Shown here: piece by piece, positions 541 to 64,000 of the stretch
Layout: each line of letters starts with the position of its first letter
Position numbering within the stretch: the first letter of the stretch is position 1
Origin: a phage
Sequence record: OZ346205.1
DNA length: 64,000 nt
Strand: one strand, 5' to 3'
The notes under the pieces: generated by a model
Told to the model about the DNA's origin: nothing
Database searches by the model: none
The model's input: the letters and a program-made list of their open reading frames with translations, nothing else
Made by a program: the position numbers and the translations under genes

Positions 541-938
541 TGATTACAGGTGTGAAGATTCTCCAATACCACTTAACCAAATTGGAAGATGCTGAAAAAG
601 AGCTTGCAGAAGTTCTGAATAGTGGATATACTTTGCTATCATGCGCCTGCTCAGACACCTACGTTGTGTGGACACTTATCCGGAAGGAAGAGCCTGCAGG
701 GATCTTGGTGCCAAACCCTAAGATTATTAGTGAGGTGGATGACTATTCCCAGGACGGCCTGCCAGAAGGCTGGGAAGTATGGGAAGGTGGTGAAAACCCT
801 GCACCAGGTAAGTGGGTAAAATATAAACTACGTAGTGGTGCACAGTACGCTGACTACTCTGATGACCTAGACTGGAGTCATTCTTCACCAGGATCGTCTG
901 CAAGTTCATATGATATCGTTGCTTTTCAGGAAGAATAA
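540..938 (+). CDS. hypothetical protein
   Basis: ATG overlaps upstream stop (TGATG); GGGAGG RBS. Confidence 0.55.
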   Translation: MITGVKILQYHLTKLEDAEKELAEVLNSGYTLLSCACSDTYVVWTLIRKEEPAGILVPNPKIISEVDDYSQDGLPEGWEVWEGGENPAPGKWVKYKLRSGAQYADYSDDLDWSHSSPGSSASSYDIVAFQEE

Positions 939-950
939 GGAGATAGTGTT

Positions 951-1433
951 ATGTCAGCTTTTATGTGGAAAGTAGGTTACGCAGCTCCTGAAATGTGTGA
1001 GGCTTGCTTTGTGAAAATAGGCCGCGAGGATATCGACAAAGTGATCCTTAAGTTTCGTGATGTGGCTGTGATCGGCAACCGAGTGCTTAAGCACTTAAAG
1101 AATTTGAAGCTCACCAAAAAGAAATTCTTCGGGCTTTTCGAAGAGAAAGTTGATGCTTGGACCCATTGCATTCAGGAAGCTAAATCTCACTACAGCGCTA
1201 TCGTTACCCCAGAACGGGTAGCCAAGATGGAAGGATTCATCAACAGCACAGAGTTTGAGTGCCTGAAAGCTGCACTTGATAGTTATCCGAAATGCCTCAA
1301 GCACTTGGACAAGTATGTAGAAAAGGATGGGGAAATGTACCTAACCCTGGACGCATATTATGAGATGCAAGAAATTTTAAATTTAGATTTGACATTGGTA
1401 TCCACCGAGTATACAATAGGTATCCGGGTTTAA
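951..1433 (+). CDS. hypothetical protein
   Basis: AAGGAGA RBS 7 nt before ATG; 160 aa ORF. Confidence 0.6.
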   Translation: MSAFMWKVGYAAPEMCEACFVKIGREDIDKVILKFRDVAVIGNRVLKHLKNLKLTKKKFFGLFEEKVDAWTHCIQEAKSHYSAIVTPERVAKMEGFINSTEFECLKAALDSYPKCLKHLDKYVEKDGEMYLTLDAYYEMQEILNLDLTLVSTEYTIGIRV

Positions 1434-1440
1434 CACTAGG

Positions 1441-1466
1441 CCCTGCCCGAAAGGGTGGGGCTTTTT
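1441..1466 (+). terminator. rho-independent terminator
   Basis: CCCTGCCC-GAAA-GGGTGGGG hairpin followed by CTTTTT; identical hairpin recurs at 11839. Confidence 0.6.
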
Positions 1467-1484
1467 GCATTAGGAGACAGCAAA

Positions 1485-2249
1485 TTGAAATTTATCTACA
1501 AAGAACACTACCACAAAGGTGTTGTGTGGAGCCTGTTTGACGGATCTGGTGGTGCAGTCATTGACTGGGCAAAAGCTGGGTATCTGTGCCTGTGCTTTAA
1601 TGCAGAAGGTGCTGATCACGGCAGTTATGCAGAGGTGATAACCGATCATCCCAACATTCACTATGTGGATTATTGGATTGACCCATGGTTCCCTCAGGAA
1701 ACTTTTTGCATGTACCCAGCTCCAGACTTTATTCTTGCATTTCCTCCGTGCACGCATTTAGCGGTATCAGGTGCTGCACATTTTAAGAAAAAGCTGGCTA
1801 AGGATCCTTTGATCCAAATTAATGCTGTAAAGGATGCTCGGGTTGCGGAAGAGTTGGGAGAGATTTACGATTGCCCGTGGCATGTAGAGAATCCTGTAGG
1901 GGTTATGTCCACACTGTGGCGAAAACCTGATTACCGTTTTCATCCTTCGGATTATGGTGGGTATTTACCGGAGGATGATGTAAACCCCTGGTTTCCTGAA
2001 TTTATAGCTCCACGTGATGCCTATCCAAAAATAACTTGCGGCTGGATAGGCAATGGATTTATAATCCCGGCCACAAAACCTGTCCCGCAAATAGTTGACG
2101 CGGTTAGCGGGTATTCCATGCAACACGCCAAGCTGGGTGGAAAGAGTGCAAGAACGAAGATGATCCGAAGCCTCACGCCACGTGGCTGGGCAAAAGCCGT
2201 ATTCTTAGCAAACGAGCCTGTAGTAAGGAGCAGAATTAATGGGAAGTAA
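1485..2249 (+). CDS. DNA (cytosine-5)-methyltransferase
   Basis: Motif I LFDGSGG, motif IV FPPC (catalytic Cys), motif VI HVENP; start placed at TTG 1485 after GGAGA because track start 1455 lies inside the terminator stem. Confidence 0.65.
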   Translation: MKFIYKEHYHKGVVWSLFDGSGGAVIDWAKAGYLCLCFNAEGADHGSYAEVITDHPNIHYVDYWIDPWFPQETFCMYPAPDFILAFPPCTHLAVSGAAHFKKKLAKDPLIQINAVKDARVAEELGEIYDCPWHVENPVGVMSTLWRKPDYRFHPSDYGGYLPEDDVNPWFPEFIAPRDAYPKITCGWIGNGFIIPATKPVPQIVDAVSGYSMQHAKLGGKSARTKMIRSLTPRGWAKAVFLANEPVVRSRINGK

Positions 2250-4317
2250 ATTTATGGCATCTGCATACAACCGTTTCGGTGAGCCAAACCCGAAAGCAAC
2301 TAAGTATAAAAGTGGGGGAAGTGTGAAACGAGACTATCGTGATGAAAAAGAGGTTGAAACTGTAGAGACTGTTTTAGAAAATACTAAAATCGTCCCTGTC
2401 CCACAACAAAATATCGGTCTGATGGCTGCACAATATTTTGGTGTGCGATCAGCATTATCCCAAGAAGATGGTGTGACAGTCACTGCAACATATTTCCCAT
2501 ATTACGACCGCTACGGAAATCTGTCCGGTTTCAAAAAGCGTGACTGGACGATTCCTAAAGAGCAAAGAGGCCATTTCTCCGTTGTTGGCATAGTAAAGGC
2601 TAACTCTCAGATGTTTGGTCAAAAGCTGTGTGCATCTTCCAACAACCGTAAGCAGATTAACGTTTGTGAGGGAGAAGGTGATGTTATTGCAGCATGGCAG
2701 GCTGCATATCAGATACAAGTAAAAGGGATTCTCACCAACGCTAAAGCCCCGGCAAAGGTGAAACAGTGGGCTAAAGAGGTCCAGGACGGGATCGATGCAG
2801 TTATCAACGGTGGCGATCTGGCAGGAAAACCATGCCTGCCTTTTGTTGGAATTAACTGTGGATGTGCAAACGCAGTAGATACTTTTGCAAACAATGAGAA
2901 GTTTATCCGTAGCTATGGAACAGTTGTGCTGGCAATGGATAACGATGCAGCTAACGAGGTAGAGAAGCAAAAACACGTCATTAAAGGTGTTGAGGCCACG
3001 CACAATATCGCAGCATTTTTGATGGCTGATAACGTTTACCACGTAGAATACCCTGGTGAAGTAAATGACCCTGACGGGGTAAAAGATATCCGTGACATGC
3101 TGAAGGCTAAAAAGCTGGAAGATATTGTCAACATGTTCCGGCACCCTGTTAAATATGTGCCTGATGCTGTGTCGGATTTAGAAGACTTCTCTATCGAGTC
3201 TTTGCGGAAAAAGACTTCCAACGGGGTAGATATCAGCGCAGAGTTCCCAAAACTGCAAAAAATGCTAAAAGGCTTGCACAAAGGGACACTCGTAATGCTT
3301 ACAGGGCCATCAGGGGGCGGTAAAACAACTGTAGCTAAAAAACTGGAACATTGTATTGCAAGATACCTAATGGACCCGACATGCCCGAAGGCTGATGACT
3401 ATGAAGAGGATGATCGTCTATGTATGATCCATCTTGAGGAGGACCCGGAGGAAGCAATTAACTCCTTGTATGCAAACCAGTTAGGGTTTGATGTTAAAGA
3501 GTTTGTTGAAGATCCTAGCCAGTTTTTAACTGATCAAGAACACGCAGAGATTCACCAATCATGGGCAAAAGCTGGAAAAATCAAAGTGTTCAAACATTTC
3601 GGATCTATTCCGGTGGACGAGTTGATTACCAAGCTTAAGCAAATGGTTTGCCTGTACCATTGCCGTTATATTGTGCTGGATCACCTGTCCATGGTAATTT
3701 CAGGGCTTAATGTTAAGGATGAGCGAAAAGAACTGGACATGGCTATGACTCAGCTGGCTGCGTTTTGTAAGCAGTTTAACGTGTTTATCTTAGTGATCGC
3801 TCACCTCAAACGTACAGAGATTGTGCCTCCTAAGGACAAGGATGGTAACCCGTTACCTTTCTGGTATCCTGTGCGAAAAGAGAATTTGCGAGGATCGGCG
3901 GGGCTTGAACAGTTGAGTTGGGTAGTCATAGGTGTCGAGGCCGAAGAAATGGTGGATCGTTCTCGTGGACGTGTCCGTCTGGTAGGTCTTAAAAACCGTC
4001 CAGCAAAAACTTTAGGTATTGCTGACACTTTGGTTATGGACCCGCACACAGGTAAGTTCCATGATGCCAGTAATTGGTACTGGGACAAAGAAATGCAAAT
4101 GTTTACAGACGGAGAAGGTGGGGAGGTTGTTTGGAGACCTCAGGCTATGTTTGAGGATCAGGAGCATGCAGTTGTAGAAACACCTATGGGCAAGGTTGTG
4201 GCTGATAAGGTTGTAACTCCTACTGTTAAGCCTGTTGACACGCAGGAAGACCTCCAGTACGATGATCCATCCTCTGACCCGGTCCCTGGTTTTGAGGATG
4301 ATGAAACGCCTTTTTAA
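2239..4317 (+). CDS. DNA primase-helicase (TOPRIM + DnaB/gp4-like helicase)
   Basis: TOPRIM-like CEGEGD and MDNDA; Walker A GPSGGGKTT; Walker B IVLDHLS; acidic tail ...EDDETPF. Confidence 0.75.
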   Translation: MGSKFMASAYNRFGEPNPKATKYKSGGSVKRDYRDEKEVETVETVLENTKIVPVPQQNIGLMAAQYFGVRSALSQEDGVTVTATYFPYYDRYGNLSGFKKRDWTIPKEQRGHFSVVGIVKANSQMFGQKLCASSNNRKQINVCEGEGDVIAAWQAAYQIQVKGILTNAKAPAKVKQWAKEVQDGIDAVINGGDLAGKPCLPFVGINCGCANAVDTFANNEKFIRSYGTVVLAMDNDAANEVEKQKHVIKGVEATHNIAAFLMADNVYHVEYPGEVNDPDGVKDIRDMLKAKKLEDIVNMFRHPVKYVPDAVSDLEDFSIESLRKKTSNGVDISAEFPKLQKMLKGLHKGTLVMLTGPSGGGKTTVAKKLEHCIARYLMDPTCPKADDYEEDDRLCMIHLEEDPEEAINSLYANQLGFDVKEFVEDPSQFLTDQEHAEIHQSWAKAGKIKVFKHFGSIPVDELITKLKQMVCLYHCRYIVLDHLSMVISGLNVKDERKELDMAMTQLAAFCKQFNVFILVIAHLKRTEIVPPKDKDGNPLPFWYPVRKENLRGSAGLEQLSWVVIGVEAEEMVDRSRGRVRLVGLKNRPAKTLGIADTLVMDPHTGKFHDASNWYWDKEMQMFTDGEGGEVVWRPQAMFEDQEHAVVETPMGKVVADKVVTPTVKPVDTQEDLQYDDPSSDPVPGFEDDETPF

Positions 4318-4375
4318 TGTTTAACAAAGAGTGGGAGGGGTAGTACAACCGCCTCCCCTTTAAGGAGAACTGTAT

Positions 4376-6799
4376 ATGAGTATGTGGTCTTTCGATTTTG
4401 AGTCATCCGGTTTGCTGGAAGACCCAGATCTTTATTATCACTGCGGTCTGTTTAAAGAGCTGAATAAGAACCGTTTTATGCTGTTCCTTCCTCTAAATGA
4501 CCGCACACACTACTCCGAGGAGGATATAGAAAAGGCTAAGAACTTCATTCTGTCAAAGAAAACTCTTTATAAAGATTTTGAAGTTCGCATAGCAGATTTT
4601 TCGGAGTTGGAAGGTTGGCTTACAGGCAATTCTGACTGGTCACCAACAGCTTTGAACTGCCATAACTGCTACAGTTATGACTTTATGCTAATGGAAAGAT
4701 TATCCGGTATTCATTTTGATATGTTCCGTGATCCTAAATGCATGGGGACTATCAACGACCACCAGGTTAACCTGTTTGATACGTTGGCTATGAGCCGAAT
4801 CTTGTGGCCTGATCGCCCTTTACCAAAAGGTTGTCCGGACGCTGTATTCAACCCGGTTACTAAGAAAATGCAACCTGTTGGTCCTCACGGCCTTATGGCA
4901 TGGGGCTACGCCCTTGGTAACCAGAAAGTTCAAATTGATGACTGGCGCGATCTTCCGTTGTGGAAGTATGTGGATCGTGTATTCGAGGACGTTATCATCC
5001 AGGAGCTGCTCTGGAAAGAGCTGGTAGCGGAATCAAAAGGTGTATTCTACGGCAAATCTGACATGCAGAACTTTATGTACGATCCAGCCAAAGAGAAGCC
5101 GAAAGGGTTCAAGAAGATCACCTGGAAGAACGCATTACGTCGAGGCATGCTGCAGCACTTCCTGATGGAGCTGCAGGCCCGTCAGGGTGTATACTTCGAC
5201 ATAGATGGAGCTATTGCTTTACGTGACCGTTGCGATGCGTGGATGAAAGAAATCGCTGATCGTGTTGAACCACAACTACCTTTAAAAGAGCTGTCAATGT
5301 CTCAGCGGCCCAAGTTCCCTGAAAAGCCGTTTAACCAAGACGGGACAATCTCTAATAATGGTTGGAAATGGTTAAAAGATAAGCTTGGCTATCCTGTAGA
5401 CATGAGTGCTTTAGAGTTCAAAGCCCCGCCTAAGCGAGCATTTACCTCTACAGGAGATGTCAGCAAGATGGGGATAAAATGGTGTGAAGAGATGGGCTGC
5501 AAAGACCCCGATAAGATGGCTGATTTCTTGAGAGGCTATATTAAGGGCACCTCCACACCACAACCCTTACCTAAAGAGCTGATGGATCAGGCAATAAGTG
5601 ATCTGCAGCAGAAGCGAATGCCTGACTGCAAGATACCTATGAAAATCAGCAATCAGGACGACATCAAGCGATACCTAATCAGTGCTGGTTGGCTCCCAAC
5701 AATGTGGAGAACTAAAGATGTAACTAAAGACAGCAAGAAGAAAGCTTTACCTGATGCAGATGTTGATGCACGAGTATATGCATATATGGACGAGCTTTTG
5801 GAGTCAGAGTATTGTGACCTAATTATCAACTTCTGGAACAAAACTGATGCTAAGTTCCAGACAACCGTGCACAAGTTCCGAAGCTTTCCTAACTCCGAAA
5901 GGATTAAAAAGGAAGTATTCGGGAAAATACGTAGAAAAGCCAGGGCACTTATTACTTCTCCGCAACTGAAAGATACGTTTGGACACCTATGCCCAAATCT
6001 TGAAAAATTGAACGGAGAGATGGCTAAAGATATCGTCTTGTGGTTATCATTGCGAAACCGCAGATCGGTCCTTGATCCAATCAAGGAGGATAAGGTTGAT
6101 ACTGGTCTTCTTAATCACCCACGTTTGAAGATTGACCATAAGCTTCCTGCTAAAAGCTCTGGATTAACAAACACTTCCAGACAGAAACACAGTATTTGTG
6201 CAAACATGCCTAAACCATCTCCTAAAGTGGTTATGGGTAAAGAGATGCGTAGTCTGTGGGGTGTTCCTCCGGGATACTTTGAGATCGGTATTGACGGGTC
6301 CAACTTAGAGCAGCTTATCGGGGCTTGGGGTGCCTTTGAGTTCGACAACGGCCTGTATTATGATGTTGTAAGTAACGGAGACGCACACCAAAACAATGCT
6401 GAGGCATATACAAAAGTGGCAGGCAGAGAGGTGTCCCGTAACGACGGTAAACCTATCACGTATGGGGTTATGTACGGGGCACAAAAAGATAAAGTTGCAG
6501 ATATGTTGGACATCTCCCCAGAGTTGGGACAAAGGGTAATCGATGCACTCTGGGATGCCAACCCAGGTCTTAAGGGGCGCAAAGAGGATCTGGAGAAATT
6601 CTGGGAAGCAACAGGTAAGAAGTTTATCTACTCTTTTGATGGTCATGCTATCTGGACCCGATCTAAACACTCTTTACTTAATGCATACCAACAAAATGGC
6701 GGTGCATCGTTGTGTGACTTAGTTGGAATACTCATGCACCACCAGATGGTGAAGCGTGGGTGGTACGATGAAGGTGTTCGTCGTATTATTTATTACCAT
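4376..6799 (+). CDS. DNA polymerase, family A (Pol I-like), exon 1
   Basis: 3'-5' exo motif FDFESSG; motif A IDGSNLEQ; motif B R..GKPITYGVMYG; frame ends ...RRIIYYH just before motif C. Confidence 0.8.
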
Positions 6800-7075
6800 A
6801 AATAACATTGTGGCTTCATAGAGTAATCTATGTCGAATAACCTCTTTAACTGCGGGAAGCCTAAACCTTATGGCAAGGTAATCCGCAACGAAGCGCTCAA
6901 AAGAGCGAACGCTCAGAGGCCATTCCGAAAGGAAGTAGACCAGCAAGTGCGGTCGAAATGGGAGGATTCCTGTGGTTGCTTATCATAGGAATATGAGATG
7001 GTCCGATCCTACGTGAAAACGTATGGCTATGCACGTAATGGTGCGGGGTAGCTTAACGACCTACCTGAACTATTG
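6800..7075 (+). mobile_element. group I intron (no ORF) splitting DNA polymerase motif C
   Basis: P-like ACTGCGGGAAGCC (6848), Q-like AATCCGCAACG (6880), S-like GAGATGGTCCG (6995); follows exonic U, ends in G; exon junction YYH|DE restores motif C. Confidence 0.65.
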
Positions 7076-18127: not shown

Positions 18128-18469
18128 ATGACTACTATGGCCGCCGCAGAAAAAGCTATTCAGATCGCCGCACTGAAAAAACAGATCGCAGACCTTGAGA
18201 ACAAGATCGATAACTTTGAAATCGACGAGGACAAGTACGACGAAAACTATGATGAATGGTTAGACGAGATCTACGGCGAAATTATGATCGGAAACATTTC
18301 TTTTCTTCCGTCGCGTATCCTCAAGGAGCTAGATCCTATCGCTTACCGCTGCGGATTTAGCGACTACATCGACAGCCTGGATATTGAGGACGATGAAGAA
18401 TACCAGGAATTACAGACAGAGTTAGAAGAAGCAAAAGAAGAGCTTGCAGAACTGGAAGAAAACGAGTAA
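18128..18469 (+). CDS. hypothetical acidic protein
   Basis: AAAGGAGA RBS; leader hairpin GGGAA-AAC-TTCCC at 18090. Confidence 0.55.
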   Translation: MTTMAAAEKAIQIAALKKQIADLENKIDNFEIDEDKYDENYDEWLDEIYGEIMIGNISFLPSRILKELDPIAYRCGFSDYIDSLDIEDDEEYQELQTELEEAKEELAELEENE

Positions 18470-60742: not shown

Positions 60743-60817
60743 GCCCTGTTAGCTTAGTGGATAAAGCAGCGGCCTTCTAAGCCGTTGACACTGGTTCGAG
60801 TCCAGTACGGGGTGCCA
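60743..60817 (+). tRNA. tRNA-Arg (anticodon UCU)
   Basis: Cloverleaf by eye: acceptor GCCCTGT/ACGGGGT, anticodon loop CTTCTAA, T-loop TTCGAGT, encoded CCA. Confidence 0.8.
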
Positions 60818-60821
60818 AATT

Positions 60822-60908
60822 GGGGAGTTATCCCGTAGAGGTAGCGGTGTAGACTGTAAATCTATTGTCATTGCGACTCGGGTGGTTCGACTCCACCACT
60901 CCCCACCA
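60822..60908 (+). tRNA. tRNA-Tyr (anticodon GUA)
   Basis: Acceptor GGGGAGT/ACTCCCC, anticodon loop CTGTAAA, long variable arm, T-loop TTCGACT, CCA. Confidence 0.75.
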
Positions 60909-61022
60909 AATTTATATTTTTAGATGCATAAATAATACAGATAATGGCATTGATATTTATCGTCGTTTATACTAGTCACTAACTGCTCGAAAATCAGTGT
61001 CATTATCAGTATAATTTATAAA

Positions 61023-61113
61023 GGAGGGTAGGGAGCAATGGTGCTCAAGCGGTATTGAAAACCGTCCCGTTGAGGATGACTCGATGATGGTTCGATTCCA
61101 TTACTCTCCGCCA
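61023..61113 (+). tRNA. tRNA-Ser (anticodon UGA)
   Basis: Acceptor GGAGGGT/ACTCTCC, anticodon loop ATTGAAA, long variable arm, T-loop TTCGATT, CCA. Confidence 0.65.
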
Positions 61114-61211
61114 CATTGTTGACCTTGTAATTAAGCGAAAGCCGGAAGCAGAACCGGATTATCAAATGTTACAGTCGTCATCGCCGACTAGCAACATGGT
61201 CAACATACTGA

Positions 61212-61310
61212 GCTAGGTAAGCCCTTTGGCAAGGGCGAGGATTTTTAATCCTGAAAATAGACGAGGTAGTCGTTGAATACATAGGTGGTTCGATTCCATC
61301 ACCTAGCACC
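61212..61310 (+). tRNA. atypical tRNA-like gene (99 nt; anticodon loop TTTTTAA, UUU?)
   Basis: Acceptor GCTAGGT/ACCTAGC, D-arm GCCC...GGGC, T-arm GGTGG-TTCGATT-CCATC, but 30-nt extra region and imperfect anticodon stem. Confidence 0.4.
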
Positions 61311-61315
61311 TTTTT

Positions 61316-61391
61316 GCTGATGTAGCACAATCGGTAGTGCAATTGATTTGTAATCAATAGGTTGTAGGTTCAAGTCCTGCCATCAGCACCA
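61316..61391 (+). tRNA. tRNA-Thr (anticodon UGU)
   Basis: Acceptor GCTGATG/CATCAGC, anticodon arm ATTGA-TTTGTAA-TCAAT, CCA. Confidence 0.8.
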
Positions 61392-61392
61392 A

Positions 61393-61467
61393 GGCCCTGT
61401 AGCTGGAAGGTTCAAGCAAGCGACTCATAATCGCCAGACGGTGGTTCAATTCCACCCAGGGCCACCA
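61393..61467 (+). tRNA. tRNA-Met (anticodon CAU; could be Ile-lysidine type)
   Basis: Acceptor GGCCCTG/CAGGGCC, anticodon loop CTCATAA, T-loop TTCAATT, CCA. Confidence 0.75.
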
Positions 61468-61478
61468 AATAGTAAATA

Positions 61479-61555
61479 CTCCGCGTAGCTCAGCTTGGTA
61501 GAGCGCCTGATTTGGGATCAGGAGGTCGAGTGTTCGAATCACTCCGTGGAGACCA
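61479..61555 (+). tRNA. tRNA-Pro (anticodon UGG)
   Basis: Acceptor CTCCGCG/CGTGGAG, D-arm GCTC...GAGC, anticodon arm CCTGA-TTTGGGA-TCAGG, T-loop TTCGAAT, CCA. Confidence 0.8.
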
Positions 61556-61976: not shown

Positions 61977-62375
61977 ATGATTTCAGTTTTAACATGGCTG
62001 AGCAGGTATAAAGGGATCATAAAAGGTTTAGTTTTTGCAGCTGCGATAGGTACAGCTTATCTTGGGGCCGTGTATTGGTTTAACTCTAAGCTTAATGATG
62101 CCTACCAAGAAGGTGTGTCAGCAACAGAGTTAAAGTGGGAACGGATCCTTGATCAGCAACAAAAGCAGGCCGACAAAATTAAAATGGGCCACGCAGAGGA
62201 GGTTAAAAACCTTGAAAAATCCCTTTCTGATCTGCAGGATAAATTAAATATAGCTGAGAAGGCAGGTAAAGAAAAGCAGATTATCTACCTCCAGTCACCT
62301 GAAGGCAAGAAGTCAACACTTCCTGATCAGCTTATAGATATTTATAATGAGAGTATCAATCAGGAGGATCAATGA
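61977..62375 (+). CDS. i-spanin-like protein (Rz-like)
   Basis: N-terminal TM helix then coiled-coil-rich periplasmic region; directly followed by lipoprotein gene. Confidence 0.5.
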   Translation: MISVLTWLSRYKGIIKGLVFAAAIGTAYLGAVYWFNSKLNDAYQEGVSATELKWERILDQQQKQADKIKMGHAEEVKNLEKSLSDLQDKLNIAEKAGKEKQIIYLQSPEGKKSTLPDQLIDIYNESINQEDQ

Positions 62376-62659
62376 GAGTTGCTACACTGTTTATTGTGTG
62401 CTTGTTATTATGTGGGTGTGCAACCAGCGTTGAGAGAGAATACAAGATTGACCCTCCTGATGTAGGAAGGTTGATTGTTAAACCCCCGGAAGGTGCCATG
62501 AAACCACCTGCTAAAGCTATGCCTTTGAAGAAAGGTGCGCCAGATGCAGTGAATTCTGGCATTATGAGGGATAATAATCTGTCTTGTAGCAATGATAGAG
62601 CTAAATTGATCATTTTGCAAGACTATATTAGAACACTTTTTCCAAAGGAGAGAGGTTAA
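62372..62659 (+). CDS. o-spanin-like outer-membrane lipoprotein (Rz1-like)
   Basis: Signal peptide with lipobox LLCGC, Pro-rich mature part; AGGAGG RBS. Confidence 0.55.
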   Translation: MRVATLFIVCLLLCGCATSVEREYKIDPPDVGRLIVKPPEGAMKPPAKAMPLKKGAPDAVNSGIMRDNNLSCSNDRAKLIILQDYIRTLFPKERG

Positions 62660-63084
62660 TGTCTAAGATTTACGGACCGTGTTCTGAAAAGCAGAAGATG
62701 ATCCTAGAAAACGATGCAGATATTTTGGTAATCGGCGGTGCCGCAGGGTCTGGCAAGTCGTTCCTCTTGCAATTGATGCCACTTAAAATTATTGATGACC
62801 CCCACAGCTCTGTGGTTATGTTCCGAAGAACAACCCCACAGTTGGAAGGTGAGGGTGGATTATGGCCTAAAGCAGTAGCTATTTATAGTGATCTGCCTGA
62901 AAACATTAAGCCAAAGTTTAGAGAGAAGGATCATAAGTTCATTTTTCCACGGTTTGATCCGAACACTGGCAAGTGGGATAGAAGCAAAAAGGGAGCTGTT
63001 GTAAAATACTGCCACATGGAGTATGTACAAGATAAGCTTAACCATCAGGGGCTTGAGTACACCATGGTTTGCTTCGATGAGGGT
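62659..63084 (+). CDS. terminase large subunit, exon 1 (ATPase N-terminus)
   Basis: Walker A VIGGAAGSGKSF; Walker B-like MVCFDEG at the exon end; frame interrupted by intron. Confidence 0.5.
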
Positions 63085-64000
63085 TAATTTGTAGCTCTCG
63101 TAAAACCTCCCTAATTGCGGGGAAATCTTTATTATTGACACCACCAACCTGTCATGGTAACATGACAGAGGCTTCGAAGAGAGATCGAAGGTATGGTAAC
63201 AGTGTGTTAATTTAGATAATCCGCAGCGAAGCATCCGAGAGGATGAACGTTCAACGACTAGTCGAAAGACGTAGAATCAAGCGATTCGAAACGGGAGGGT
63301 GAATGTGTAATACTAAGAAATGTATGGATTGCCAAAGAGTTCTACCTATTGATGATTTCTTTTTATCATCTAAGAGCAAGGATGGATACTCAGGTACATG
63401 CAAGGAATGCTATATGTACTACAGGAAGGGTGGATCTCGTAAAAACAAAAATATGGTTAAGAGAGATGATGCAGCATTGTTTATTCAAGACTTGCTGAAG
63501 AAAGGTGAACTTTTTGAATGCAAATCTTGTCATGAAAGTATGCTCGCTGATAGTTTTTACACAAAACGTGACTATGGTAAAGTATATCTGGTTACGAACA
63601 GGTGTAAGATGTGTGAAAAGTTTTATCAGATTGAGAAGAAATTTCACATAACAAAAGATGAATACTATCGTCTACTCTCAGATCAAGATCATAAGTGTGC
63701 CATTTGTAGAATATCCCTTGATGAGTATAGGACGCAAGGGTATAGAGATTTCTTTTGTGTTGATCATGACCATAAAACTGGTGCTGTAAGAGGGTTGCTT
63801 TGTGATAAATGCAACAGAGCTTTAGGTTTCTTCCAAGAGGATGAGGAAACTATTCTTAGAGCGGCAGAGTATTTACACATTCATAAGATATAGTCTGGTC
63901 TGCATGGAGACATGCAGCTGCCTGAAAATGGCGGGGCAAGACTAGCGACCTTGCCCGAACATAAACGACACAATTCGAATGGGAGCAGATAGACTACCTG
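63085..64000 (+). mobile_element. group I intron with homing-endonuclease ORF in terminase gene (3' end beyond window)
   Basis: P AATTGCGGGGAAATC (63113), Q AATCCGCAGCG (63228), R GTTCAACGACTAGTCG (63249), S AAGATATAGTCTGG (63884); ORF 63303..63893 lies between R and S. Confidence 0.65.
63303..63893 (+). CDS. intron-encoded endonuclease VII / HNH-family homing endonuclease
   Basis: CAIC...DHDHKTGAVRGLLCDKCN motif; N-terminal CxxC zinc-ribbon repeats; GGGAGGG RBS. Confidence 0.6.
   Translation: MCNTKKCMDCQRVLPIDDFFLSSKSKDGYSGTCKECYMYYRKGGSRKNKNMVKRDDAALFIQDLLKKGELFECKSCHESMLADSFYTKRDYGKVYLVTNRCKMCEKFYQIEKKFHITKDEYYRLLSDQDHKCAICRISLDEYRTQGYRDFFCVDHDHKTGAVRGLLCDKCNRALGFFQEDEETILRAAEYLHIHKI

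Follow-up and report, generated by a model that had tools for sequence, protein, structure and literature searches.

The large terminase subunit gene (terL) of this rV5-like coliphage is interrupted by an element that we read, with high confidence, as a self-splicing group I intron of subgroup IA type carrying a homing endonuclease gene. We analysed a window of 64,000 nucleotides from sequence record OZ346205.1, in which the 883-nt intron occupies positions 63085..63967 on the plus strand, beginning with an in-frame TAA and ending at G63967. An earlier sequence-only reading of the same DNA had proposed that a group I intron with an endonuclease splits terL, and this central claim is borne out by a covariance-model match in sequence and structure, exact in silico excision, three natural alleles, retention of the helices among those alleles, an intact endonuclease VII (Endo VII) motif and purifying selection on the intron's open reading frame (ORF). 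Positions 62600-64000 are 100% identical to Escherichia phage MaxBurger (Vequintavirus), a phage of the BASEL collection (PMC8594841), and in the MaxBurger record (GenBank MZ501093.1) terL is annotated as a join of two pieces that encloses a 'putative homing endonuclease'. The element is therefore real but already known, and we regard it as ordinary because GenBank annotation and published descriptions exist for the same phage group: terL introns of rV5 were published in 2013 (Kropinski et al. 2013, PMC3606486), the JES2013 copy of the endonuclease was included as intron-encoded in a 2018 study (Fang et al. 2018, PMC6083498), and a terL intron was also described for LL12 (PMC6658697).

Intron boundaries were set from intronless alleles together with group I splice-site rules. 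As the sequence-only reading had stated, the terminase ORF stops directly after CFDEG: the 142-aa ORF at 62659..63087 ends in ...MVCFDEG, and its stop codon TAA lies at 63085-63087. Exon 1 (62659..63084, plus strand, 142 codons), recognized from the ORF list, Pfam Terminase_6N and identity to terL of MZ501093.1, encodes the Walker A motif GGAAGSGKS and a Walker B-like MVCFDE followed by G142, and ends at T63084, which supplies the U of the 5′ splice site. The sequence-only reading had put exon 2 and the 3′ splice site beyond the window; intronless and fully sequenced alleles instead end the intron at G63967 and put the splice site at 63967|63968, so that 33 nt of exon 2 (63968..64000, plus strand) lie inside the window as 11 codons that begin ACA CAA TTC and read TQFEWEQIDYL. 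Judged from these alleles, the position of the 3′ splice site and the first 11 exon 2 codons is that reading's sole error. Followed past the window end into MZ501093.1, exon 2 totals 1122 nt.

Excision of 63085-63967 in silico restores the reading frame across the junction GAGGGT|ACACAA and yields a 1548-nt ORF for a TerL of 515 aa and about 59 kDa that is identical at 514 of 515 positions to the uninterrupted TerL of phage MaxTheCat. The insertion point lies one codon past the Walker B glutamate (FDEG|TQF), and the terminal intron nucleotide is a G, as expected of an omega-G. Moving the junction by -1 still reads EGTQ, yet breaks both the U rule and the G rule. By eye, P10 is weak, with about 3 bp at most. 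Spliced TerL covers Pfam Terminase_6N profile positions 2-211 of 215 (E = 6e-20) and also matches Terminase_6C (E = 5e-6), whereas exon 1 alone covers Terminase_6N positions 2-104, the first half only; a full ATPase domain followed by an RNase H-like nuclease domain, the arrangement of T4-type large terminases, is found in the spliced product alone. As a PDB search with the spliced TerL sequence gave no useful match, we assign Walker B from the hhhhDE pattern and the Pfam coordinates.

The intervening RNA matches the group I intron model RF00028. In E-value mode on the sub-region, the Rfam scan that the sequence-only reading had proposed as a check aligned 63075-63917 to all 253 model positions with 48.7 bits (E = 4.3e-11), a match over the full model that is far beyond chance. 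A default scan at the gathering threshold did not report the intron, which falls 1.3 bits short of the cut-off of 50; because the 564-nt ORF insertion in P8 lowers the score, we attribute this miss to an insertion penalty on an intron that is present, and rV5, whose copy of the intron lacks the ORF, reaches 84.9 bits (E = 1.8e-21). The elements named earlier as P (63113-63127), Q (63218-63228), R (63249-63264) and S (63885-63898) are present exactly as written and align to the P4, P4′, P7 and P7′ consensus of RF00028. Their shortened cores each occur once on the plus strand of the 64-kb window, with the Q core also at 18348 on the minus strand.

All helices lie on the plus strand. The P1 hairpin (63077..63101) pairs 63077-63086 with the internal guide sequence at 63092-63101, and within these 10 bp a U63084·G63094 wobble marks the 5′ splice site; P1 is supported by the Rfam alignment, the minimum free energy (MFE) fold and pair counts among alleles. 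No P2 helix is predicted in the RF00028 alignment of the intron. The 5′ strand of P3, CCUCCC (63106..63111), pairs with 63293-63298 (Rfam alignment, fold and pair counts), and the P4-P5 domain (63113..63228; Rfam alignment, MFE fold and pair counts) comprises P4 (63115-63121/63220-63226), formed by the P and Q elements, P5 (63125-63128/63214-63217), P5a (63134-63146/63194-63211), P5b with a GUAA loop (63149-63168) and P5c (63172-63190). P6/P6a follows at 63227..63249 (Rfam alignment, fold and pair counts), with P6a at 63232-63245 closed by a loop that is GAGA in the window copy and GAAA in Aya and ECP26. Within the R element, the 5′ strand of P7 (63256-63260; Rfam alignment and pair counts) pairs with 63891-63895 in the S element, and there the 3′ strand of P7 overlaps the stop codon TAG of the endonuclease ORF (63891-63893), the overlap that had been noticed earlier. 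The hairpins P7.1 with a GAAA loop (63261-63270) and P7.2 (63274-63287) separate the 5′ strand of P7 from the 3′ strand of P3; both are seen in MFE folds and as conserved pairs, all 8 of which are retained in every allele. Such hairpins are a typical feature of subgroup IA in the Michel and Westhof classification, and by this rule the intron is assigned to subgroup IA, resembling T4 td. The 3′ strand of P3 lies in GGGAGGG (63293..63299; P3 strand 63293-63298; sequence, Rfam alignment and fold), which also holds a Shine-Dalgarno sequence. P8 is a 12-bp stem (63299-63310/63873-63884; rV5 alignment, fold and pair counts) whose loop is nearly the whole endonuclease ORF, and the P9 region (63897..63956; Rfam alignment, MFE fold and pair counts) contains P9.0 (63897-98/63918-19), P9 with a GAGA loop (63900-63917), P9.1 (63920-63932) and P9.2 (63934-63956). 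In a construct lacking the ORF, the MFE fold reproduces the helices except P6 and the P7 pseudoknot.

Natural variation preserves this structure. For pair counts the alleles were aligned with the P8 loop removed, and P8 was scored for its outer four pairs only because the P8 stems of ORF-containing and ORF-less alleles differ in length. Across 97 proposed pairs in 11 distinct alleles, 99.6% of cells are paired, versus 34-40% in slid controls; four single cells, in LL12, A135 and one metagenomic copy, break a pair. Both-sided changes occur in 2 pairs. A compensatory change in P5b at 63153/63164 replaces C-G with U-A, with a U·G intermediate among the alleles, and GNRA loops remain GNRA throughout. 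Because the alleles diverge by only 2-3%, covariation support is modest. A promoter scan gave a sigma-70-like match within the intron (63135-63163), but we claim no promoter because the scan's matches were not enriched over shuffles (9 versus 5.9 ± 2.5).

These results bear on whether anything is spliced at all, since terL might be naturally split into two halves that yield separate proteins and flank a free-standing endonuclease gene, as the separate CDSs for the two terminase parts in the records of HdK5, magaca, Pr121LW, APCEc02 and ECP26 would have it. The break, however, lies inside the ATPase fold and leaves exon 1 with half of Terminase_6N. At the junction exon 2 lacks a start codon, and the annotated second CDSs use internal ATGs and lose at least 11 conserved codons. 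The intervening RNA fits a group I model with a canonical U·G 5′ splice site and a terminal G, and uninterrupted alleles join both parts exactly. We consider a naturally split terL very improbable next to an intron-interrupted gene.

The same site exists in three allelic states among Vequintaviruses: an 883-nt intron with the ORF (30 records), a 319- or 320-nt ORF-less intron (about 23) and no intron (about 65-70). The alleles were drawn from GenBank phage records because IMG/VR gave 15 related loci, too few for a population view. Carriers of the intron with its ORF include MaxBurger, JES2013, APCEc02 and rV5_ev168, and intron state varies inside the ICTV species Vequintavirus murica and V. 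APECc02. The sequence-only reading had named a continuous terminase ORF in the true sequence, with the interruption an assembly artefact, as what would refute it. We found no support for such an assembly or sequencing artefact, or for an intein, and give either next to no credence: the 883-nt insertion recurs at 96-100% identity in 30 phage records, deposited independently and originating from several countries, and also in two viral contigs derived from metagenomes, so the refutation fails. An intein is excluded because the insert opens with an in-frame TAA and its 883 nt are not a multiple of 3.

Exon sequence beside the intron is also informative. In 23 alleles read at exon position -1, T is present in all 12 with an intron and in none of the 11 without, where the base is C in 10 and A in one; MaxTheCat reads GGC|ACG CAG at this point and PDX reads GGA|ACG. 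Markers in the exons lose their linkage to the intron within about 6 nt, which fits very short co-conversion tracts and would equally be produced by functional constraint acting only on the U at the splice site. In Aya and ECP26 the same intron sits in a divergent exon background, with 97.5% identity to MaxBurger in the intron versus 93.9% and 94.0% in the flanking exons.

The intron ORF (63303..63893, plus strand) encodes a 196-aa protein for which an endonuclease VII signature had been proposed, and profile searches agree: Pfam Endonuclease_7 (PF02945) matches residues 110-192 with E = 2e-21, the PHROG matches are endonuclease VII families, and PDB matches are Hpy99I (9.6e-6) and T4 Endo VII (5.7e-4). 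The N-terminal part contains two CxxC...CxxC zinc-ribbon-like modules (C7/C10/C33/C36 and C73/C76/C101/C104), followed by a C-terminal Endo VII (DHHRN) nuclease with C132/C135, D154, H155, H157, R163, C167/C170 and N171. The catalytic motif, with DHDH at residues 154-157, is intact and agrees with the DHHRN residues defined in PMC6083498. Strong purifying selection acts on the ORF (dN/dS 0.03-0.08). Relative to the ORF-less allele, 582 nt of inner P8 (63301-63882) replace an 18-nt segment, and this cassette is bounded by a 10-nt inverted repeat, GAATGTGTAA/TTACACATTC. The JES2013 protein is 100% identical to the window ORF; at a threshold of at least 98% identity the ORF occurs solely in this intron at this terL site, in 30 records, and its next relative is 40.6% identical.

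Homing is the most likely role of the 196-aa enzyme, judging from its sequence and distribution: like homing endonuclease genes, the ORF lies in a mobile intron and is polymorphic for presence at a conserved target site. An improbable alternative is that the intron splices while the protein has no homing function, or has lost it, and instead acts as a resolvase-like enzyme, a packaging HNH protein, a maturase-like helper or an anti-phage weapon without intron spread. Among solved structures its closest relatives are indeed Hpy99I, which is a restriction enzyme, and T4 Endo VII, which resolves Holliday junctions; neither is a characterized homing enzyme, and an intron endonuclease has been shown to serve competition between phages (PMC11620839). 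Terminase-adjacent HNH proteins function in packaging in some phages, according to a passage of PMC7344957 that cites Kala et al. 2014. The ORF is dispensable for splicing and intron retention, given that about 23 records have an intron that lacks it. Several observations oppose these other roles. The near-identical ORF is confined to the terL intron, and it is missing from about three quarters of Vequintavirus records, including ones with an otherwise near-identical terL, which makes an essential packaging or resolvase function impossible. The Endo VII motif is C-terminal, as in the clade that contains the proven homing enzyme F-CphI (PMC6083498), and strong purifying selection combined with presence and absence fits an active mobile element. 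The HNH packaging factor of cos-type phages (Kala et al. 2014) was rejected as a candidate identity, the ORF not being conserved in all Vequintavirus members.

Comparison with described introns places the window copy within a known family. Intron 1 in terL of rV5 (NC_011041.1, ORF64ABC) and the LL12 intron are the same ribozyme at the same terL site, with cores about 98-99% identical outside P8 and the same junctions, GGT|...ACG|ACA. Both are ORF-less and 319 nt long with a short 8-bp P8 hairpin, whereas P8 of the window copy is replaced by the endonuclease cassette; the window phage also lacks the second terL intron of rV5, which contains an HNH ORF. MaxBurger and 29 other Vequintavirus records carry the same element without difference, although many annotate separate genes. 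Like the window intron, the T4 td intron (I-TevI, subgroup IA2) is a phage group I intron with P7.1 and P7.2, and its 3′ part is 83.5% identical to the window P7′-P9 region over 79 nt. In both, an endonuclease ORF is looped out of a peripheral helix and the insertion point is a catalytically conserved position in an essential gene, but T4 combines td with an ORF in P6a and a GIY-YIG enzyme, and the window combines terL with P8 and an Endo VII/DHHRN enzyme.

Among enzymes, F-CphI of the DHHRN family shares the C-terminal Endo VII motif CX2C...DHDH...R...CX2C-N with the 196-aa protein. F-CphI is free-standing beside a psbA intron and its DNA cleavage has been shown, whereas the window enzyme is intron-internal, is known here from sequence and bears two additional zinc-ribbon modules at its N-terminus. 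In the study of this family (Fang et al. 2018, PMC6083498), the protein of 'Escherichia phage 2 JES-2013' is given as intron-encoded and falls within the endonuclease clade. Group I introns also interrupt the large terminase genes of two different phages, Lactobacillus phage LL-H, cited by the rV5 paper as the sole earlier terL intron (PMC3606486), and Pectobacterium phage CB7 (Certrevirus, Vequintavirinae), in which splicing was shown by RT-PCR and cDNA sequencing (PMC7344957). The CB7 intron carries an HNH-family ORF, in contrast to the Endo VII type in the window. Another endonuclease encoded by an intron within an essential phage gene is PhiPA3 gp210, which cleaves the allele lacking the intron when a relative co-infects (Birkholz et al. 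2024, PMC11620839). That gene encodes a jumbo-phage RNA polymerase and the competitive effect was shown experimentally, whereas the terL case is read from sequence.

From its own sequence, and by analogy with the different terL intron of CB7 in a related genus, the window intron would be expected to splice. After transcription, the terL RNA would fold into the P1-P9.2 core, an external guanosine would attack after U63084 paired with G63094 in P1, and the freed end of exon 1 would attack after the terminal G63967, joining the exons into an mRNA for the 515-aa TerL. In a mixed infection the endonuclease would cut terL close to the insertion site in a genome without the intron, and repair templated by the intron-carrying genome would copy the intron with the adjacent exon base or bases. 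The Shine-Dalgarno sequence of the ORF coincides with the 3′ strand of P3, 4-5 nt upstream of the AUG at 63303, which itself sits in the P8 stem, and this arrangement may couple ribozyme folding to endonuclease translation. Translation of T4 I-TevI is also restrained by RNA structure. Because the Shine-Dalgarno sequence is a P3 strand and the AUG lies in P8, folding and translation could be mutually exclusive and form a built-in switch. The endonuclease could also cut terL at its Walker B region in intronless Vequintaviruses that co-infect, making it a weapon beyond a selfish passenger, and the intronless C or A at exon position -1 could be a cleavage-resistance variant kept by phage conflict. 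Taken jointly, a competition weapon met by resistance variants and, separately, a folding and translation switch form a tentative picture to which we give only a minor share of belief.

Phage group I introns that sit in conserved catalytic sites and encode homing endonucleases are textbook biology, so no concept is changed by the element described here. Its value for annotation is that terL, an essential and widely used marker gene, is split by an intron; in many deposited Vequintavirus genomes the terL pieces appear as separate genes or under wrong names, which disturbs phylogenies and gene counts. Intronless, ORF-less and endonuclease-bearing states at one site in near-identical phages constitute a clean natural series, suited to the study of homing, co-conversion length and endonuclease-mediated competition between therapeutic coliphages.

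Removing an 883-nt segment near the end of the window restores a continuous large terminase gene (terL). The terminase ORF stops right after its CFDEG motif, as the sequence-only reading had reported: the 142-aa ORF at 62659..63087 carries the Walker A motif GGAAGSGKS, ends in MVCFDEG followed by TAA, and matches the Pfam Terminase_6N profile over its first half only (positions 2-104 of 215, E 1e-5). In silico excision of 63085..63967 from Escherichia phage MaxBurger (MZ501093.1; Vequintavirus, BASEL collection), which is 100% identical to window 62600-64000, yields a 1548-nt ORF. The encoded 515-aa TerL shares 514 of 515 residues with its uninterrupted counterpart in phage MaxTheCat and matches Terminase_6N at 2-211/215 (E 6e-20) together with Terminase_6C, supporting the proposal that an intron interrupts the gene. 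A junction moved by -1 also encodes E-G-T-Q, and we chose 63084/63085 and 63967/63968 because they are the sole junctions that obey group I rules (U63084.G63094 in P1 and a terminal intron G63967). With these boundaries, the 3′ splice site falls inside the window, as do the first 33 nt of exon 2 (encoding TQFEWEQIDYL), correcting the earlier placement of both beyond the window. Upstream of terL, the genes for i-spanin (61977..62375) and o-spanin (62372..62659) overlap, and at TAATG (62656-62661) the stop codon of the o-spanin gene overlaps the start of terL. Window position 61977, the i-spanin start, is position 1 of MZ501093.1, so the window spans that record's arbitrary start and the genome is present here in permuted or re-joined form. 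Just upstream of the spanin–terminase block, six tRNA matches cluster at 60743..61552 (+); the corresponding position in rV5 is annotated with tRNAs for Arg, Tyr, Ser, Thr, Met and Pro.

The four group I elements named from sequence, P (63113-63127), Q (63218-63228), R (63249-63264) and S (63885-63898), all match the + strand exactly as written. Shortened cores of each occur once on the + strand of the 64-kb window, and the Q core alone has an extra − strand match at 18348. At gathering threshold, an Rfam scan of the whole window lists no intron at the terL locus; the Rfam check proposed earlier succeeds in E-value mode only, finding the group I model RF00028 at 63075..63917 in a search of 62900-64000 (253/253 model positions, E 4.3e-11) with 48.7 bits, below the gathering score of 50 bits. 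The alignment treats the endonuclease ORF as a single long insertion in the P8 loop, and an ORF-less allele of the same intron scores 84.9 bits, demonstrating that the ORF penalty alone keeps the window copy below threshold.

Rfam alignment and folding together define the + strand helices P1 (63077-63086/63092-63101), P3 (63106-63111/63293-63298), P4 (63115-63121/63220-63226), P5 (63125-63128/63214-63217), P5a-c (within 63134-63211, with a GUAA loop on P5b), P6/P6a (63227-63249, GAGA loop), P7 (63256-63260/63891-63895), P7.1 (63261-63270, GAAA loop), P7.2 (63274-63287), P8 (63299-63310/63873-63884) and P9 (63900-63917, GAGA loop); neither approach predicts a P2 helix in this intron. The Rfam model ends at P9, and the remaining 50 nt of the intron comprise P9.1 (63920-63932), P9.2 (63934-63956) and a 3′ tail. 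When GAAA stands in for the ORF, an unconstrained minimum free energy fold reproduces these helices apart from P6 and the P7 pseudoknot. Hairpins P7.1 and P7.2 are a mark of subgroup IA group I introns, and the 3′ part of the T4 td intron is 83.5% identical to the window intron over 79 nt; by both features the terL intron belongs with the subgroup IA phage introns. Pairing at the 97 proposed base pairs is 99.6% over 11 distinct alleles, compared with 34-40% when the 3′ partners are slid. At 63153/63164, C-G gives way to U-A via a U.G intermediate, the remaining stem changes are mostly G-C/G.U/A-U switches, and GNRA loops are kept despite substitution (GAGA to GAAA at 63239, GAAA to GAGA at 63266). 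With allele divergence low, this conservation gives modest backing to the predicted ribozyme structure.

The 196-aa ORF within the intron (63303..63893) carries the endonuclease VII signature recognized in the sequence-only reading, with a Pfam Endonuclease_7 match (E 2e-21) and catalytic residues D154, H155, H157, R163 and N171 in place; its TAG stop lies inside S, as also stated there. Three CxxC...CxxC pairs are present (C7/10/33/36, C73/76/101/104 and C132/135/167/170). The closest solved relative by sequence is the restriction enzyme Hpy99I (E 9.6e-6, residues 57-192), followed by T4 endonuclease VII (E 5.7e-4), and matches to PHROG endonuclease VII families reach 3e-33. Intact copies have a dN/dS of 0.03-0.08. 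The metagenomic copy in IMGVR_UViG_3300010279_000001 is frameshifted by one extra T in a T5 run equivalent to window ~63553; either the homopolymer was misread in sequencing or the endonuclease gene is decaying. The ORF is embedded in the ribozyme: its Shine-Dalgarno sequence (GGGAGGG, 63293-63299) is the P3 3′ strand, its AUG (63303) lies within the P8 5′ strand, and its last codons supply the P8 3′ strand and part of P7. From this overlap we infer that ribozyme folding and endonuclease translation may compete. Upstream, in P5a/P5b, a sigma-70-like match at 63135..63163 (+) combines TTGACA, a 17-nt spacer and TAACAT with an extended -10 TG (10/12); the scan as a whole was not enriched over shuffles, and an internal promoter here is only a lead.

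In the phage collection this locus occurs as three natural alleles. Thirty records have the 883-nt ORF-containing intron, roughly 65-70 have an intronless terL, and about 23, rV5 and LL12 among them, have a 319/320-nt intron lacking the ORF, a count obtained by subtracting the 30 from the 53 records that cover the ORF-less query. Over window 62600-64000, 29 further phage records are 96-99.9% identical. At ≥98% identity the 196-aa protein is confined to the 30 ORF-form Vequintavirus records, and its next relative, in Listeria phage LPML1, is 40.6% identical. Between the two intron forms the entire P8 is exchanged: a 582-nt segment (63301-63882) flanked by the inverted repeat GAATGTGTAA/TTACACATTC in the ORF form, and 18 nt, AAGCG(A/G)TTGTTGTCGCTT, in the ORF-less form. 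Base-by-base reading of 23 alleles places the insertion point between the same two nucleotides in every case.

Exon position -1 is T in 12/12 intron-bearing alleles, and in 11 intronless alleles is C in 10 and A in 1. Linkage to the intron is weaker at +3 and +6 and absent farther out: intronless alleles read GGC (or GGA) followed by ACG CA(G/A), and intron-bearing alleles GGT, the insertion, then AC(A/G) CA(A/G). These differences are synonymous and cluster no more than 6 nt from the insertion site; the needs of the splice site, co-conversion or cleavage resistance could account for them. Intron content also varies within ICTV species: in V. murica, Murica and CarlMeissner are intronless and LL12 and Pr121LW have the ORF-less form; in V. 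APECc02, APCEc02 has the ORF form and MaxTheCat is intronless. The Aya and ECP26 introns are 97.5% identical to that of MaxBurger in a divergent exon background (flanking exons 93.9% and 94.0%). Together, T(-1), the linkage decay, the intraspecies variation and Aya/ECP26 are consistent with horizontal movement in recent times and very short tracts of co-conversion; a splice-site U constraint alone could also cause the association at -1.

Other introns occur in these phages. A second, ORF-less group I intron lies at 6790..7025 (+) in the window (RF00028, 64.7 bits, above gathering), and its start slightly precedes the stop codon of an 809-aa ORF (4376..6805), which relatives' annotation identifies as family-A DNA polymerase. 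In related phages, either the locus contains an HNH ORF or about 15% of the query is missing, and the intron agrees with the LL12 announcement, which describes introns in terL and the DNA polymerase gene (PMC6658697). The rV5 terL is published as three segments split by introns, one with a homing endonuclease (Kropinski et al. 2013, PMC3606486), and its RefSeq record joins three pieces with an HNH ORF (3742..4437) in the second intron (about 3400..4700 of rV5). That second intron is absent from the window's phage and has no Rfam match at gathering threshold.

The terL element is already annotated: in MZ501093.1, terL is a join of two pieces (683..3113) that enclose a "putative homing endonuclease" (1327..1917), and the BASEL paper used comparative genomics to annotate homing-endonuclease-associated intron boundaries (PMC8594841). 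With F-CphI as the central member, Fang et al. (2018, PMC6083498) defined an Endo VII-motif (DHHRN) family of homing endonucleases and listed as intron-encoded a protein of "Escherichia phage 2 JES-2013", which is 100% identical to the window's 196-aa ORF. Splicing of a terL intron was seen by RT-PCR in the related Certrevirus CB7 (PMC7344957); we found no experimental splicing or cleavage work on this Vequintavirus terL intron in the literature. The magaca, Pr121LW, HdK5, APCEc02 and ECP26 records give the split terL as separate CDSs, and in several such records product names are off by one gene (o-spanin as 'putative large terminase subunit', exon 1 as 'putative recombinase endonuclease', the endonuclease as 'terminase large subunit'). 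In addition, 16-18 MG065xxx records labelled Campylobacter phage are 97-98.5% identical to coliphage Vequintavirus over the terL region, at least one of which, A135, is marked UNVERIFIED; the NCBI taxon of A135 is Vequintavirus, and the Campylobacter host label looks doubtful. Among phage mobile group I introns the terL element is a standard case, previously annotated and published. The wholesale P8 swap between forms, the placement of the Shine-Dalgarno sequence in P3 and the AUG in P8, and the perfect match between T(-1) and the presence of the intron have possibly not been spelled out before, and merit a sentence in an experimental study rather than a claim of discovery.
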